From Oligoflexia bacterium (GTDB lineage Bacteria > Bdellovibrionota > Bdellovibrionia > JABDDW01), in contig JAYTHU010000058.1 of NCBI GenBank assembly GCA_043732305.1, positions 1 through 38,291 of the forward strand: a stretch of DNA of 38,291 bases, in the 5' to 3' direction. Positions 12,898 through 17,082 of the stretch are shown piece by piece; position 1 is the stretch's first letter; each line of letters starts with the position of its first letter. A program made the translations under genes and the position numbers. Below the pieces are notes generated by a model. That model saw only the letters and a program-made list of their open reading frames with translations, was not told where the DNA came from and did no database searches.

Positions 12898-13545
12898 TTA
12901 AATACTTATCCAAAATCCACGCAGGACGGTGTCTCGTTCGAGAGGAAATTCAAAATCCAACGGCGGTTTGACTTTTTCCAATCGCACAAACGTAAAACCA
13001 AGTTTTAGCGCCACTTCTTCAATAATTTTAGCAACGTGTGATGGTGAAAGTTCTTCATCATTGTAGGTGAAGAGAATTCGACCTTCTTTTTCGAGACATT
13101 TCAGTGAAGTTTCGATCATGGGGGCCAGTTTTTCAGCGAGGCGGAAAATTTCGCCTTTAGCGCGTGAGAAGGTGGGTGGATCCAAAAGGATCATGTCGAA
13201 CTTTCGGCCACGTTTCATGCAAGAATTTAGAAAAAACAAAGTGTCCGCAGTGAAGAATTCATATTTTTCAGGATCTAGACCATTCAGTTTGAAATTGTCT
13301 TTTCCCCAATCCAAAGATTGTTTGGAGGTGTCCACACTGACTACTTCGGCGGCTCCACCCATTGCGGCAGCAACGGAAAAACCACAGGTGTAGCTGAAAA
13401 AATTTGCTACTTTTTTACCGTGTGTGGTTTCTCTCACTTCTTCGCGGTTTTCTCTTTGGTCTAAAAATAATCCAGAGCTCATTCCCTGAGAATGTCTTAG
13501 GTCAAACGAAATACCATTCTCGGTAATAGTCCATTGCAAAGGCAT
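12898..13545 (-). CDS. SAM-dependent rRNA methyltransferase (RlmI/RlmK-like) domain, probably the C-terminal half of an interrupted fusion
   Basis: GLFLDQRENR, NFFSYTCGFSV and LDPPTF motifs. Same frame as the upstream ORF, separated only by TAA-AAA. Confidence 0.85.
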   Translation of the reverse strand: MPLQWTITENGISFDLRHSQGMSSGLFLDQRENREEVRETTHGKKVANFFSYTCGFSVAAAMGGAAEVVSVDTSKQSLDWGKDNFKLNGLDPEKYEFFTADTLFFLNSCMKRGRKFDMILLDPPTFSRAKGEIFRLAEKLAPMIETSLKCLEKEGRILFTYNDEELSPSHVAKIIEEVALKLGFTFVRLEKVKPPLDFEFPLERDTVLRGFWISI

Positions 13546-13548
13546 TTT

Positions 13549-14496
13549 TTATGACGCTTGTACTCGTAAATCAGTTTCTTCGGTCATACTTTTTGTATTT
13601 CCACGATTGACCATCTGACGTAAAAACCAGTGTGAGCAGAGGGTCACGTCCGCTAGAAAATCTAGGAGTTCAATAGACAAATAAGCTGACGCCGACTGAT
13701 GCGGGGAATAGGTCATGACTTGTAAAATATCGCCAAGTTTTTCGATCACTATAGGCAGTCGGGGAAACCACTCGCGATGACAAAGTCTAAATGCATTTGT
13801 CCCGCCATTTGGCTGCGCCATCAAAAACCGTCTGCGATCAAAACTGATCATAAATTTTATAGCCGCGTCTTGAATCGGTGGAACGAGAGCGAGATATTTT
13901 TTTTCAATCCGCTGATCCATCAAAAACGCTATGGGCAGGGGAGACTGAATCTTAGTGTTGTCGATGGTGAGTTCCCAAGAATGAAGCATCAGCCGATGAA
14001 AAGGTTTTCCACCGTGCTCGGGATCTCCCAAAATGGGCAAACCTGATTTCTGCGCGTGAATTCTAATCTGGTGAGTTTTTCCAGTGGAAATTTCTGCTTC
14101 ATAAATGTAGCCGAGGCAATTCTTTCCAATTTTAGCAAAAGTTGTTTTGCTATTTACCTCGCCATCGACCAAATCGAATTTGTGACTTCCCACCTTTTCA
14201 ATTCTGCCTTCAAAGGACCAAACACTCTGAGGAGAATCATTGGGAGAAATAAAAACATATTTTTTGATGCTGGCTTTGAGTTTTTCTGACCAGGCTTCGA
14301 CACCTTCAGAACTAGTGCTACAAATGATGCAGCCTGAAGTGTCACGGTCCAAACGGTGCACGGCCCAGAGTTTTTCTCCGAGCAAGCGTTCTGCTGACTC
14401 AGTGAAGCCTGCAGTCACACCACTATCAGGGGTGTGTGTGGACATTCCGGCAGGTTTATCTAGAATAAGGGCACTTTTGAAACTACGTAGAATCAT
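13549..14496 (-). CDS. RluA-family pseudouridine synthase plus N-terminal part of an RlmI/K-type methyltransferase
   Basis: DKPAG, HRLDRDTSG, TGKTHQIRIH, PILGD and LMLH motifs. The C-terminal AFRLCHRE...IEKLGD resembles the RlmI/K pre-catalytic domain. GAGGA RBS. Confidence 0.85.
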   Translation of the reverse strand: MILRSFKSALILDKPAGMSTHTPDSGVTAGFTESAERLLGEKLWAVHRLDRDTSGCIICSTSSEGVEAWSEKLKASIKKYVFISPNDSPQSVWSFEGRIEKVGSHKFDLVDGEVNSKTTFAKIGKNCLGYIYEAEISTGKTHQIRIHAQKSGLPILGDPEHGGKPFHRLMLHSWELTIDNTKIQSPLPIAFLMDQRIEKKYLALVPPIQDAAIKFMISFDRRRFLMAQPNGGTNAFRLCHREWFPRLPIVIEKLGDILQVMTYSPHQSASAYLSIELLDFLADVTLCSHWFLRQMVNRGNTKSMTEETDLRVQAS

Positions 14497-14630
14497 GACT
14501 ATTCCTCAATGAATTTGGGCCGATACTGTCATGCGGCATAATTCTAAGCAATCCTTAAATAAAATACTTACCAACCCGCAAAATATTCTCTTTACCTAAT
14601 TACAATTTACCTTTCTAATAATCTCAACTG

Positions 14631-14785
14631 GCAGCATTTTTGTCGGGGGGACGCCCGGCACTACTTTCTCGAGACACTTGAGTAGAGGTGAGTAGCCCGG
14701 CGTATGACAAAATTTGAAACTGCAGGGAGAGGGGTTTACGGGGGGTAATAGCCTCGGTGCCCATGGATGGGCTTCTCTTCTTTTT
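14631..14785 (+). ncRNA. Candidate structured non-coding RNA or 5' leader of unrecognised family
   Basis: GC-rich island in an AT-rich intergenic region. Nested stems: GCAG/CTGC, TTTTGTC/GACAAAA, ACGCC/GGCGT, CTACTT/GAGTAG, CTCGAG/CTTGAG. These are followed by a branched domain and a U-tract. G-U pairs favour the + strand. Confidence 0.6.
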
Positions 14786-14821
14786 AACCGGCTCTGCCGA
14801 AGATAAACCGGCTCTTGCCGG
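14786..14821 (+). repeat. Two tandem mini-hairpin repeats AACCGGCTC(T)TGCCG
   Basis: aaccggctctgccg (14786-14799) and aaccggctcttgccg (14806-14820). Each folds as CGGC/GCCG. Confidence 0.8.
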
Positions 14822-14848
14822 AATGTATTTAACAGATGGAATAACACA

Positions 14849-15343
14849 ATGCCGAACACACACGCAAATGCCGCGACATCCGAAAACAAAGCTCTCGTCT
14901 TTCAAAAAGTTGGAATCTTTGTCGATGCCGAAAATATTGAAACTTCGGGCCTGAAACATCACAAAGGCCGAACCGATTATAAAAAAGTTTTAGAAAATGT
15001 TGGCGATAGAGAAATTCTCCGGATTATTTATTACAAGCCAGAATTTAAAGAAATTTCCGAAGAGTTTAAAACTTTTTGGGGACGCCTTGGCGGAGAAATA
15101 AAAACTCCCGTTAAAAATGCCGATTGTTTCTTGATTATTGATGCCGTCACCATGGCAGATAAACTCGATGTGGTTATCATTCTTGGCGGAGATAAGGATT
15201 ATCTCCCTTTGATCTGGTATCTAAAGAGCCGCGGTTGCAAAGTGGAAATTTGGGCTTGGCCTGAAGCCACCAGTGACAGTGTCAAAGAATCAGCCGATGT
15301 CTTTGTCGCTCTCGATAAAAAATATATCATGGCTTCTCGCTAA
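14849..15343 (+). CDS. Stand-alone NYN-domain (LabA/DUF88, PIN-like) ribonuclease
   Basis: IFVDAEN, KNAD..IID, GGDKDYLPL...GCKV and ADVF motifs. The acidic active-site residues are retained. Confidence 0.9.
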   Translation: MPNTHANAATSENKALVFQKVGIFVDAENIETSGLKHHKGRTDYKKVLENVGDREILRIIYYKPEFKEISEEFKTFWGRLGGEIKTPVKNADCFLIIDAVTMADKLDVVIILGGDKDYLPLIWYLKSRGCKVEIWAWPEATSDSVKESADVFVALDKKYIMASR

Positions 15344-15347
15344 GATA

Positions 15348-16994
15348 TTATTTCTCACTCGCGATACCGCGAATATCATCTTTATTATGATCACCTGACA
15401 ATTGATCGGGCATCATGCCGAGCGATTCTGCGTTGTTTTGCTCACGAGTTGAGATGAGTGAGAGCCATTGAGCGCCGTAGCGACGAATGGCTGGACTATG
15501 CGCCCAACCCCAGAGTGGGTTTTCATTGTCTAAAAATTTTGATTTTTCTAACAATGTGACTGGCTTTTCTTCTTGTGAAGCGACGTAAAAATCCATAGCC
15601 GTGAAAATTTGCGATTCAAAGCCTGAGGATGGTGAGATGTCTTTTTTAAACCCATTCCATTGGTTTTTAGAAAACTTATCCGATTTGATTTTTTTCCAAA
15701 CCCATGCCAATTTTGCAGCATTGGTAGTGAGTTTTGGATTTTTTGAATTCTCACAGCCCTGATTCCAATTTTTCCAAAAAGGATTTTGCCCACAATAAGA
15801 AACATCAGCGGTATTGCATTTATGAAAAGCAGTTGCCTGGCAGCTCACTTCGGTCAGTTGATCTTGAATGATTGGTGCGAGCGGGTTGGCGTGAGTTTCT
15901 TGAGTCATTTCTGAACTGACTAAATTTGCTGCCTGTTCAAATTCGCCACGTTTGCAAAGTTTGCGGATGAGATGAGTTTTTAGAGCCATATAGGCCACTG
16001 TGTTAGGACTCATCGTGTTGAGCGCTCGCTCCAAAACATCGAGTTGCAATTGATAATGATTGTCACCAACGGATACTTCCGCTTTGTACAATAGTTGAAT
16101 CACTTCTAACGCTTTTCCAGTTTTTCCCACCTTGGTTTGCATCTCACTCAATAATGCGCCGAGAAGCTGAGATGTTTGGCAAAATTCACTCTCTGCATAT
16201 TGTTTCCGGCAGAGGAAATTTTCATTTGAGAGCATGCGCGTTTTATAAAAATGAAATCGATCACTGACTGGAAGTTTCTTGGCTTGCGCGAAGTAAGCCA
16301 ACTGTGCCGCCATTTTTTCCTCGTCTATTGAAGAGGATTTAATAAAGTGCGGATCGAATTGGTCTATTAAAATGAGCCATGATTCGTCCTGTAACGTCAC
16401 AAGATTGGTGAAGTGACTGCGATCGAGTTTCTGAAATTGGAAAAATATCAGCAAGGATAAAACTGAGAAAAATACCATCGACACAAGAGCTGCCCAGCTG
16501 TGGCCAATTGCCTTTTCAGTCAATCCTGCAGGGGACGAAACATGAATTTTCTCAACATCGATGACAATGGTTTCAGAAACAATGTCATGCCACGCGCGTC
16601 TATCACTTCGAGACAATATAGTGCTCCAGCCCGCTCCAATAGAGAGCGCGCCAAGCCACCAGATGGATTGTCTCGCCAAGATTTGCCAGGCACTGAGAGG
16701 AGCGTCGGGATTAGCGTTTTGAATCTGCATCGCAAACGCTTTTTTACCAAGTGTGGTTCCTGTGAAATAAATCATCACACACTGATAAACAAACGTAGCC
16801 ATCGGCCACAATACAGCTACCAAAATAATCCATTGTGCCGTCCATGATTTTTCTCTGAATAAAAAAGTGAGGAAAAGCAAAATTGCTGAAAGAACCAATG
16901 CTTGATCTATAAGTTGCGATGCAAGGCGAATCCAAGGGTTCGCAACTTTCCATTGGTCAAAAGCGCGTCTGCGGGGAGATGTGGGTTCGGACAT
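15348..16994 (-). CDS. RDD-family membrane protein with large C-terminal soluble domain
   Basis: RLASQLID, GTTLGKKAF and RRAWHDIVSET RDD motifs. GGAAGG RBS favours ATG 16994 over 17009. Confidence 0.8.
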   Translation of the reverse strand: MSEPTSPRRRAFDQWKVANPWIRLASQLIDQALVLSAILLFLTFLFREKSWTAQWIILVAVLWPMATFVYQCVMIYFTGTTLGKKAFAMQIQNANPDAPLSAWQILARQSIWWLGALSIGAGWSTILSRSDRRAWHDIVSETIVIDVEKIHVSSPAGLTEKAIGHSWAALVSMVFFSVLSLLIFFQFQKLDRSHFTNLVTLQDESWLILIDQFDPHFIKSSSIDEEKMAAQLAYFAQAKKLPVSDRFHFYKTRMLSNENFLCRKQYAESEFCQTSQLLGALLSEMQTKVGKTGKALEVIQLLYKAEVSVGDNHYQLQLDVLERALNTMSPNTVAYMALKTHLIRKLCKRGEFEQAANLVSSEMTQETHANPLAPIIQDQLTEVSCQATAFHKCNTADVSYCGQNPFWKNWNQGCENSKNPKLTTNAAKLAWVWKKIKSDKFSKNQWNGFKKDISPSSGFESQIFTAMDFYVASQEEKPVTLLEKSKFLDNENPLWGWAHSPAIRRYGAQWLSLISTREQNNAESLGMMPDQLSGDHNKDDIRGIASEK

Positions 16995-17082
16995 GCTGTT
17001 TCCTTCCATGGAATAGCGAGGTGAGTACCGCTATTCAGTCTACACGATTTCAAAATTTATTTGAACGTGACGAAGGTCGAGA

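Follow-up and report, generated by a model that had tools for sequence, protein, structure and literature searches.

A conserved RNA element of about 70 nt was found in the leader of a gene for a stand-alone NYN-domain protein within the window, that is, the whole stretch of 38,291 nt analysed here. It is a new conserved leader motif with no Rfam match, and it is smaller than the RNA described in the initial annotation. Sequence comparison supports the conclusion that this core is genuine and structured, evolves under purifying selection and is linked to the NYN gene. As for its function, we somewhat favour the view that the core is a cis-regulatory mRNA leader at which a CsrA dimer is predicted to occupy two sites and thereby to control a predicted RNase of the housekeeping type.

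Organization of the locus and copies of the leader

The core is located 5' of the NYN orthologue in 6/6 genomes of one Bdellovibrionota family. A pattern scan of metagenomes gave eight matches, five of them upstream of an NYN orthologue with a divergent RluA gene; the matches L036, L038 and L042 had neither an NYN gene nor the flanking conserved letters and were dropped as chance matches. The loci L037 and L043 duplicate L005 and L040, respectively (each was counted once), which left nine distinct copies, three of them closely related; L025, a repeat of L009, was excluded. Each copy has the same order, namely the promoter motif, 14–108 nt that cannot be aligned, block 1, stem-loop P2, block 2 (14756–14772) and the pyrimidine tract. 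The features of the locus are listed in Table 1.

The TTTACN and TCTAAT motifs were present in 9/9 distinct copies with a spacing of 17 nt in eight and 18 nt in one. This putative promoter is absent from the output of the consensus scan because its −10 element carries C at position 2. A run of at least four G was observed near the predicted start in 8/9 copies (14645–14650 here; further in for L005). In most copies it lies within the first 2–25 nt of the predicted transcript and could take up a freed pyrimidine tract. The NYN reading frame begins 64 nt past the U-tract, as had been annotated, and no toxin–antitoxin partner gene was found downstream of it. The RluA gene (13549–14496) is separated by 3 nt from a gene for an RlmI/RlmK-like methyltransferase (12898–13545), both on the minus strand. 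In the stretch that separates the core from NYN, a 10-nt word occurs twice, 20 nt apart (14786–14821), forming small hairpins that were not seen in the homologues.

Table 1. Features of the NYN locus (positions in the window).
Feature	Position	Strand	Remarks
Putative sigma-70-type promoter	14591..14619	+	TTTACN-17 nt-TCTAAT; predicted start site ~14626
Rod-like hairpin (domain 1 of the initial annotation)	14631..14713	+	Genome-specific, variable 5' part of the leader; z −2.71, no homologue
Conserved block 1	14716..14736	+	CsrA-type site 1 lies here, as does the 5' strand of basal stem P1; 17/21 columns invariant (9 copies)
Putative CsrA site 1, CA-N-GGAG-R	14723..14730	+	N = G, A or C among copies; pairing within P1 predicted for the free leader
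Stem-loop P2	14739..14756	+	Length and sequence vary, pairing retained
Hairpin P3 with hexaloop AUGGAN, putative CsrA site 2	14759..14772	+	N = U, C or G
Pyrimidine tract	14773..14785	+	3' strand of P1; terminator-like in some copies only
NYN (LabA/DUF88) stand-alone protein, predicted ribonuclease, 164 aa	14849..15343	+	PF01936, E 7e-19
RluA-family pseudouridine synthase gene, divergent neighbour	13549..14496	-	PF00849; position kept in 9/9 distinct copies
RDD-domain gene, convergent neighbour	15348..17009	-	PF06271; beside NYN in 7/9 distinct copies within the DNA examined

Conservation and distribution of the core

The initial annotation had described a structured non-coding RNA of 155 nt with two domains next to the NYN gene. 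The pairing arms that it listed are all present in the sequence where it placed them. Across the copies, the conserved part is the 3' half only (about 14716–14785), so that the structured RNA beside the NYN gene holds for this core and not for the two-domain unit. The long rod of domain 1 lies in a region that is unalignable in the nine copies, is a single copy within the genome and had its best BLASTN match elsewhere among the fetched loci at an E-value of 3.5; it was rejected both as a conserved RNA and as a dispersed repeat. In folding, domain 1 (14631–14723) was more stable than its shuffled versions (z −2.71, 2/200); the values were z −2.08 (5/200) for domain 2 (14723–14785) and only z −1.37 (13/200) for the whole 181 nt.

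In the conserved blocks, 33 of the 38 columns are invariant among the nine copies, including 16 of 17 in the block 14756–14772. The pattern of this block had one exact match per genome in 6/6 family genomes and 0 control matches. At the fourfold-degenerate sites of the NYN gene, 0/30 were invariant and the mean pairwise identity was 0.30, i.e. these sites are saturated.

A covariance model of the core recovered the six family copies with E-values from 5e-15 to 2e-11. In a search of 151 class genomes, the model gave three weak matches in 2 of the 145 outside genomes, none of them beside an NYN gene. The core was found in none of the leaders at 38 NYN loci searched outside the family; two weak matches (E-values of 0.25 and 0.59) were situated elsewhere in their loci. 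The conservation expected upstream of NYN homologues is thus found within the family, with covariation in P2, and is missing from 38/38 outside leaders. Two exact-core patterns were also used to scan 401 and 301 genomes of the phylum: among the matches listed, those with zero mismatches occurred only in the family, and near matches to block 1 were at the control level. Viral contigs contained no match to the element. As far as the search reached, the element is confined to one uncultured family, which limits its general weight.

A search of the whole window against Rfam at gathering scores revealed tRNA-Arg only, and at 14450–14900 with E-values up to 10 there was one chance snoRNA match and nothing else. 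This agrees with the initial annotation, in which the RNA was not recognised as a tRNA, SRP, 6S, tmRNA or common riboswitch. A disguised housekeeping RNA (6S, SRP, RNase P, tmRNA or tRNA) was considered and rejected: no model matches here and each is encoded elsewhere, with 6S, SRP, RNase P and tmRNA each located in the source genome. Two matches to RNase P RNA above the Rfam cut-off were observed (G000:C9:3315–3681 and G000:C47:6–367; with an identity of about 80% across 178 nt); of the two, the latter is on a contig of 1584 bases and may be contamination. In the literature searched, neither this leader nor an NYN protein regulated by RNA was found to be described.

Secondary structure

In a model with three helices, 91% of the cells pair; 0/500 shuffles reached 91% and slid controls gave 54–72%, all these percentages being inflated by related sequences. 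Pairs 2–4 of P2 are formed in 27/27 cells with a two-sided change at each pair; the first pair was used as an anchor and left uncounted, and three copies have an identical P2. Since P2 is displaced by a single column in three rows of the MAFFT alignments, the pairs were also counted from anchors. This covarying stem (14739–14743 with 14752–14756), which is capped by UUCG in L003, replaces the middle stem TTAC/GTAA around a G5 loop drawn in the initial annotation. In P1, 89% of the cells are paired and the register slides among the copies. The sequence of P3 is invariant, and the hairpin therefore has no covariation support. It consists of a 4-bp stem and a 6-nt loop AUGGAN; of the previously proposed GCCCA/TGGGC hairpin, four pairs are kept and the fifth, the A-U pair, is lost in 4/9 copies, in which it is A·C or A·G.

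A terminator-like match was found at 14759–14772 in the source genome. The 9 nt after P3 contain 3–7 U, with at least six U in 2/9 copies. The suggested leaky terminator before the NYN gene fits the source genome and is not a conserved property of the leader.

The numerous invariant letters surrounding the three-way junction, the covariation of a peripheral stem, the 5' leader position and alternative folds that are nearly isoenergetic (0–4 kcal/mol) would also suit a small-molecule riboswitch, or an RNA recognised by an sRNA or by a protein other than CsrA, with the junction letters as the site of the ligand or partner. We consider this improbable: there is no Rfam match, the element was found in one family only, and the predicted gene product is an RNase and neither a transporter nor an enzyme of a pathway.

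A role of the conserved letters at the level of DNA or in an upstream ORF is very improbable. The P3 loop does contain an invariant AUG, and the third base of the second codon varies. However, the ORF starting from this AUG has a length of 10–100 codons and, depending on the copy, is in any of the three frames with respect to NYN, on which grounds it was rejected. In addition, block 1 contains a 1-nt indel among the copies, and the G-U pairs in P1 and P2, together with the UUCG loop, favour an RNA of the plus strand.

CsrA-type motifs and the CsrA system of the host

The core carries two CANGGAN(G/A) motifs that match the CsrA-site consensus in 9/9 copies and were absent from the initial annotation. 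The CsrA consensus is given as (A/U)CANGGANG(U/A); for E. coli, SELEX gave the consensus RUACARGGAUGU (PMC6692469). Site 1 reads UACARGGA in 3/9 copies and has A instead of G as its last letter in 5/9. Only two columns hold three different letters, one per site (the first N in site 1, the second in site 2); random placement of both at consensus N positions has a probability of about 1%, which is a post hoc estimate subject to the caveat that loops vary more than stems in any RNA. The two sites are spaced 37–49 nt apart and neither overlaps the ribosome-binding region.

The csrA gene (PF02599) was found in 6/6 family genomes, and fliW and rho are present in the source genome. When intergenic C-[ANxyzN]-G hairpins of the source genome were counted, GGA ranked first among the 64 trinucleotides with 12 hairpins (AAA 11; median 2), an enrichment that is confounded by Shine-Dalgarno hairpins and depends on crude ORF calling. 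There are 14 intergenic motif pairs (a second CANGGANR within 60 nt), and two of them include a C-[ANxyzN]-G hairpin: a flagellin leader and the NYN leader. Among the flagellin leaders of the source genome, 1/5 has the two-site hairpin layout. The flagellin leader at G000:C51:30740–30780 contains a perfect 5-bp hairpin with the hexaloop CANGGANG and a second site over the Shine-Dalgarno sequence, and is predicted to be a classic CsrA target. In B. bacteriovorus, CsrA was reported to inhibit a hag reporter with a GGA stem-loop leader (PMC13443453).

The invariant letters GAAACU and GGU are not accounted for by the CsrA sites alone. Invariant letters beyond the CsrA motifs are consistent with autoregulation, in which the NYN protein would bind or cleave the core and limit its own mRNA, the GGA motifs being incidental or secondary. 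Several RNases limit their own mRNA, the linkage between the core and NYN is strictly one-to-one, and the NYN proteins whose genes carry the element fall together on one side of a tree branch with a support of 80/99. Nevertheless, the variation sits at the N positions of the CsrA motifs, NYN orthologues outside the family that are 65–73% identical lack the element, and the protein has no RNA-binding accessory domain; we regard autoregulation as a minority possibility.

The NYN protein and its distribution

The profile search assigned the protein to PF01936 with 69.2 bits against a cut-off of 24.2, as a stand-alone domain. No other domain was found in this search, and NCBIfam contained no family for the protein. 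Its gene is the sole PF01936 gene of the source genome. The structure model had a pLDDT of 87.8, with 2qip (TM 0.76) and the NYN domain of MARF1 as the best structural matches. In agreement with the initial annotation, the acidic residues are intact: D26, E28, D92, D98, D115 and D117 are invariant in 28/28 aligned proteins, which were picked from 120 listed hits. The fold and these residues allow us to predict that the protein is a ribonuclease. LabA-like NYN proteins are described as a large family whose function is unknown (PMC5499597).

A close NYN orthologue was found in 66/251 class genomes, with one copy in each, and is distributed by whole families (f1 5/5 plus the source genome, f6 5/5, f7 19/19, f11 3/3, f3 26/76 and f2 1/118). 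In a tree of 46 NYN proteins, the families f1 and f7 are each located on one side of a branch, and a single gain of the leader element may be compatible with this tree. Within the family, the identity is 76–86% for NYN, 51–66% for the adjacent RluA protein and 29–40% for the RDD protein. A tRNA-Arg was found at 24/37 NYN loci outside the family, many of which also contain a queF or RluA gene. This profile seems to be that of a vertically kept, slowly evolving gene and not of a toxin in an arms race.

The initial annotation had proposed that the locus is an RNA antitoxin with its RNase or a ribonucleoprotein module, in which the core RNA would bind and neutralise a toxic NYN nuclease as in type III or AbiF systems. 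A type III locus is characterised by three components, namely repeats, a terminator and a gene for the toxin (PMC12283969); in AbiF, the RNA contains two motifs and neutralises a toxin related to HEPN (10.1101/2025.04.15.648962). The order of promoter, structured RNA, pyrimidine tract and small predicted RNase with intact acidic residues is similar to that reported for the ToxIN, TenpIN and CptIN loci and for AbiF, the source genome has the terminator-like site described above, and the AbiF RNA was reported to regulate in cis as well (10.1101/2025.04.15.648962). Other evidence weighs against this proposal. Tandem repeats are absent: the only repeat is the 10-nt word in two copies downstream of the core, and none was seen in the alignment of copies. 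The intrinsic terminator is not conserved, NYN is better conserved than both neighbours, and it is a single-copy gene carried by whole families, grouped by family in the tree and often accompanied by tRNA-Arg with queF or RluA. Most orthologues lack the RNA, and the leaders of the outside NYN loci searched are without the element (38/38). The protein has the NYN fold, not a ToxN or HEPN fold, and no toxin of the ToxN, TenpN, CptN or HEPN/Abi_2 families was found; viral contigs gave 0 matches, and PADLOC gave weak partial matches only. We therefore consider an antitoxin function unlikely, with a slim probability left to it because NYN orthologues outside the family may depend on an RNA of another kind.

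Proposed CsrA-dependent switch

The preferred reading, control of NYN through CsrA, can be stated as a sequence of predicted steps. Transcription would begin at about 14626 at the promoter-like motif. In the free RNA, P1 would pair site 1 with the pyrimidine tract and bury it, and the hexaloop of P3 would display site 2. Bridging of both sites by CsrA would open P1 and free the tract. The freed tract would then most likely lead to pausing or Rho-dependent termination before the NYN gene is reached, in the manner of E. coli pgaA. The output of NYN would in this way follow the level of free CsrA in a host with CsrA and FliW. Leaders that are switched by CsrA away from the Shine-Dalgarno sequence have precedent, and at pgaA CsrA exposes rut sites (PMC7652899). 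CsrA-dependent attenuation was chosen because pgaA, the nearest precedent, has rut sites exposed in this way. In direction, we give a slight preference to repression over stabilisation or activation.

Folding of the full leaders is consistent with the first steps. The GGA of site 1 has an unpaired probability of 0.01–0.39 in 9/9 copies, and that of site 2 of at least 0.74 in 8/9. The opening of both sites costs 1.4–5.2 kcal/mol and increases the accessibility of the pyrimidine tract in 8/9 copies, while the predicted accessibility of the ribosome-binding site changes by at most 0.17. The state with both sites in loops is 3.7–9.4 kcal/mol above the ground state; the energy model contains no term for protein binding. 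A rival GGGU/GCCC rod is 0–4 kcal/mol from the ground state, and it outweighs P3 in 7/9 copies in folds of the nascent RNA that were constrained to keep both sites open. Downstream of P3, the first 60 nt contain more C than G in 7/9 copies. In view of the rival rod and of an intrinsic terminator that is not conserved, the step at which the switch would act and its direction are proposed tentatively. A site-1 hairpin (AACU/GGUU) was considered as the CsrA-bound fold and rejected; it is possible in 9/9 copies and energetically favoured in 1/9 nascent folds.

The core could also combine two roles, as a switch that senses CsrA and as a direct ligand of the NYN protein, with an RNA domesticated from a repeat restraining the nuclease until it is remodelled by CsrA. 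CsrA would be freed or sequestered via FliW and flagellin, and the two-site RNA would have been domesticated in one predator lineage. This double role has, in our estimate, little chance of being correct. If true, it would couple an RNA-neutralised NYN nuclease to the flagellar checkpoint, a combination that was not found in the literature searched.

Comparison with known systems and related repeats

The NYN leader likely works as known CsrA-switched leaders do. The leaders of E. coli pgaA, moaA, ymdA and flhDC, switched by CsrA/Rsm, likewise have two GGA-type sites, one of them in a hairpin loop, according to PMC7652899; at pgaA the rut sites are paired as a pyrimidine-rich segment, and in the NYN leader the pyrimidine tract is predicted to bury one of the sites. 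Unlike the E. coli leaders, the NYN leader has a fixed three-way junction across six genera, its target is an uncharacterised NYN protein, the host has CsrA-FliW and the binding of CsrA is a prediction. The hag/flaA leaders of CsrA-FliW bacteria also have two sites, one in a hexaloop closed by C-G (PMC13443453). However, the sites of the NYN leader are not over the Shine-Dalgarno sequence, and P3 ends 17–84 nt before the first in-frame AUG.

The protein shares its Pfam match, fold and acidic residues with the LabA/DUF88-like NYN proteins (PF01936, NYN.COG1432, 2qip; PMC5499597), and its neighbours (RNA modification genes and tRNA) agree with the context of tRNA/rRNA processing suggested for LabA/DUF88 in that source. 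In comparison with LabA/DUF88 at large, it belongs to a tight Bdellovibrionota subfamily. No conserved regulatory leader for the LabA/DUF88 NYN family was found in the literature searched. If the proposed control by CsrA is true, this new conserved motif would provide a candidate for a native CsrA target of Bdellovibrionota that is not part of motility, and would open a way to study the LabA/DUF88 NYN proteins through their regulation. In this phylum CsrA has been implicated in predation, and its regulation is described as little known (PMC13443453).

The core also resembles the TwoAYGGAY elements (RF01731; PMC2864571, PMC4333381, 10.64898/2026.09.22.753630), which have two hairpins on a basal stem, a loop of the AUGGAY type and proposed CsrA binding. 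In contrast to them, the NYN leader has the motif in one loop only and the second site in the basal stem, and it is a single copy fixed in the leader of one gene. The RF01731 model had no match in 14450–14900 at E-values up to 10 and none in the source genome at E-values up to 1, and AYGGAY is missing from the P2 loop in 9/9 copies.

Multicopy palindromic rods tipped by GCCC-ATGGAT-GGGC were observed in G017 (29 matches), G015, G248, G329 and other genomes, and at the loci L074–L093. In many cases a further ANGGA motif lies some 40 nt upstream of them, and a scan of 14 rod loci with RF01731 gave no match. The TwoAYGGAY elements have been proposed to be CsrA-binding and mobile-like (PMC4333381; 10.64898/2026.09.22.753630). 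The rods resemble these elements, and it is possible that the NYN core was domesticated from such a repeat. In the genome G004, a sub-threshold TwoAYGGAY match (L142:1501–1635; 38.9 bits, E-value of 1e-4) is located within a long inverted repeat.

The question arises whether the core could be a CsrA sponge, i.e. a short RNA ending after P3 that is a single domesticated relative of TwoAYGGAY with two sites, the NYN gene being expressed by read-through. The occurrence of the P3-type hairpin at the tips of rods in other Bdellovibrionota, the match in the family member G004 (the RF01731 cut-off is 43 bits) and the proposal that TwoAYGGAY loops are Csr sites (PMC4333381; 10.64898/2026.09.22.753630) all point in this direction. 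On the other hand, RF01731 does not match here, the P2 loop lacks AYGGAY, there is one copy per genome, the terminator is not conserved and site 1 is predicted to be buried. A sponge thus appears rather unlikely.

In G406, a mraZ leader (L108:1445–1620) combines a TATAAT box with a CAGGGAT motif as a second site, a P3 hairpin identical to that of the NYN leader and a tract rich in U. This arrangement is missing from the mraZ leader of G000.

In other families, a different conserved element was observed between queF and NYN on the strand opposite to NYN (L009, L016, L021, L022, L027, L029/L132, L121 and L130), with no convincing copy in G000. It contains a GGCA(T/C) motif, which presumably resembles a sigma-54 promoter, then, 40–55 nt on, a GGG(C/T)C(C/T)TGC box and, after it, a terminator-like hairpin shared with queF. 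This element is a candidate small RNA.
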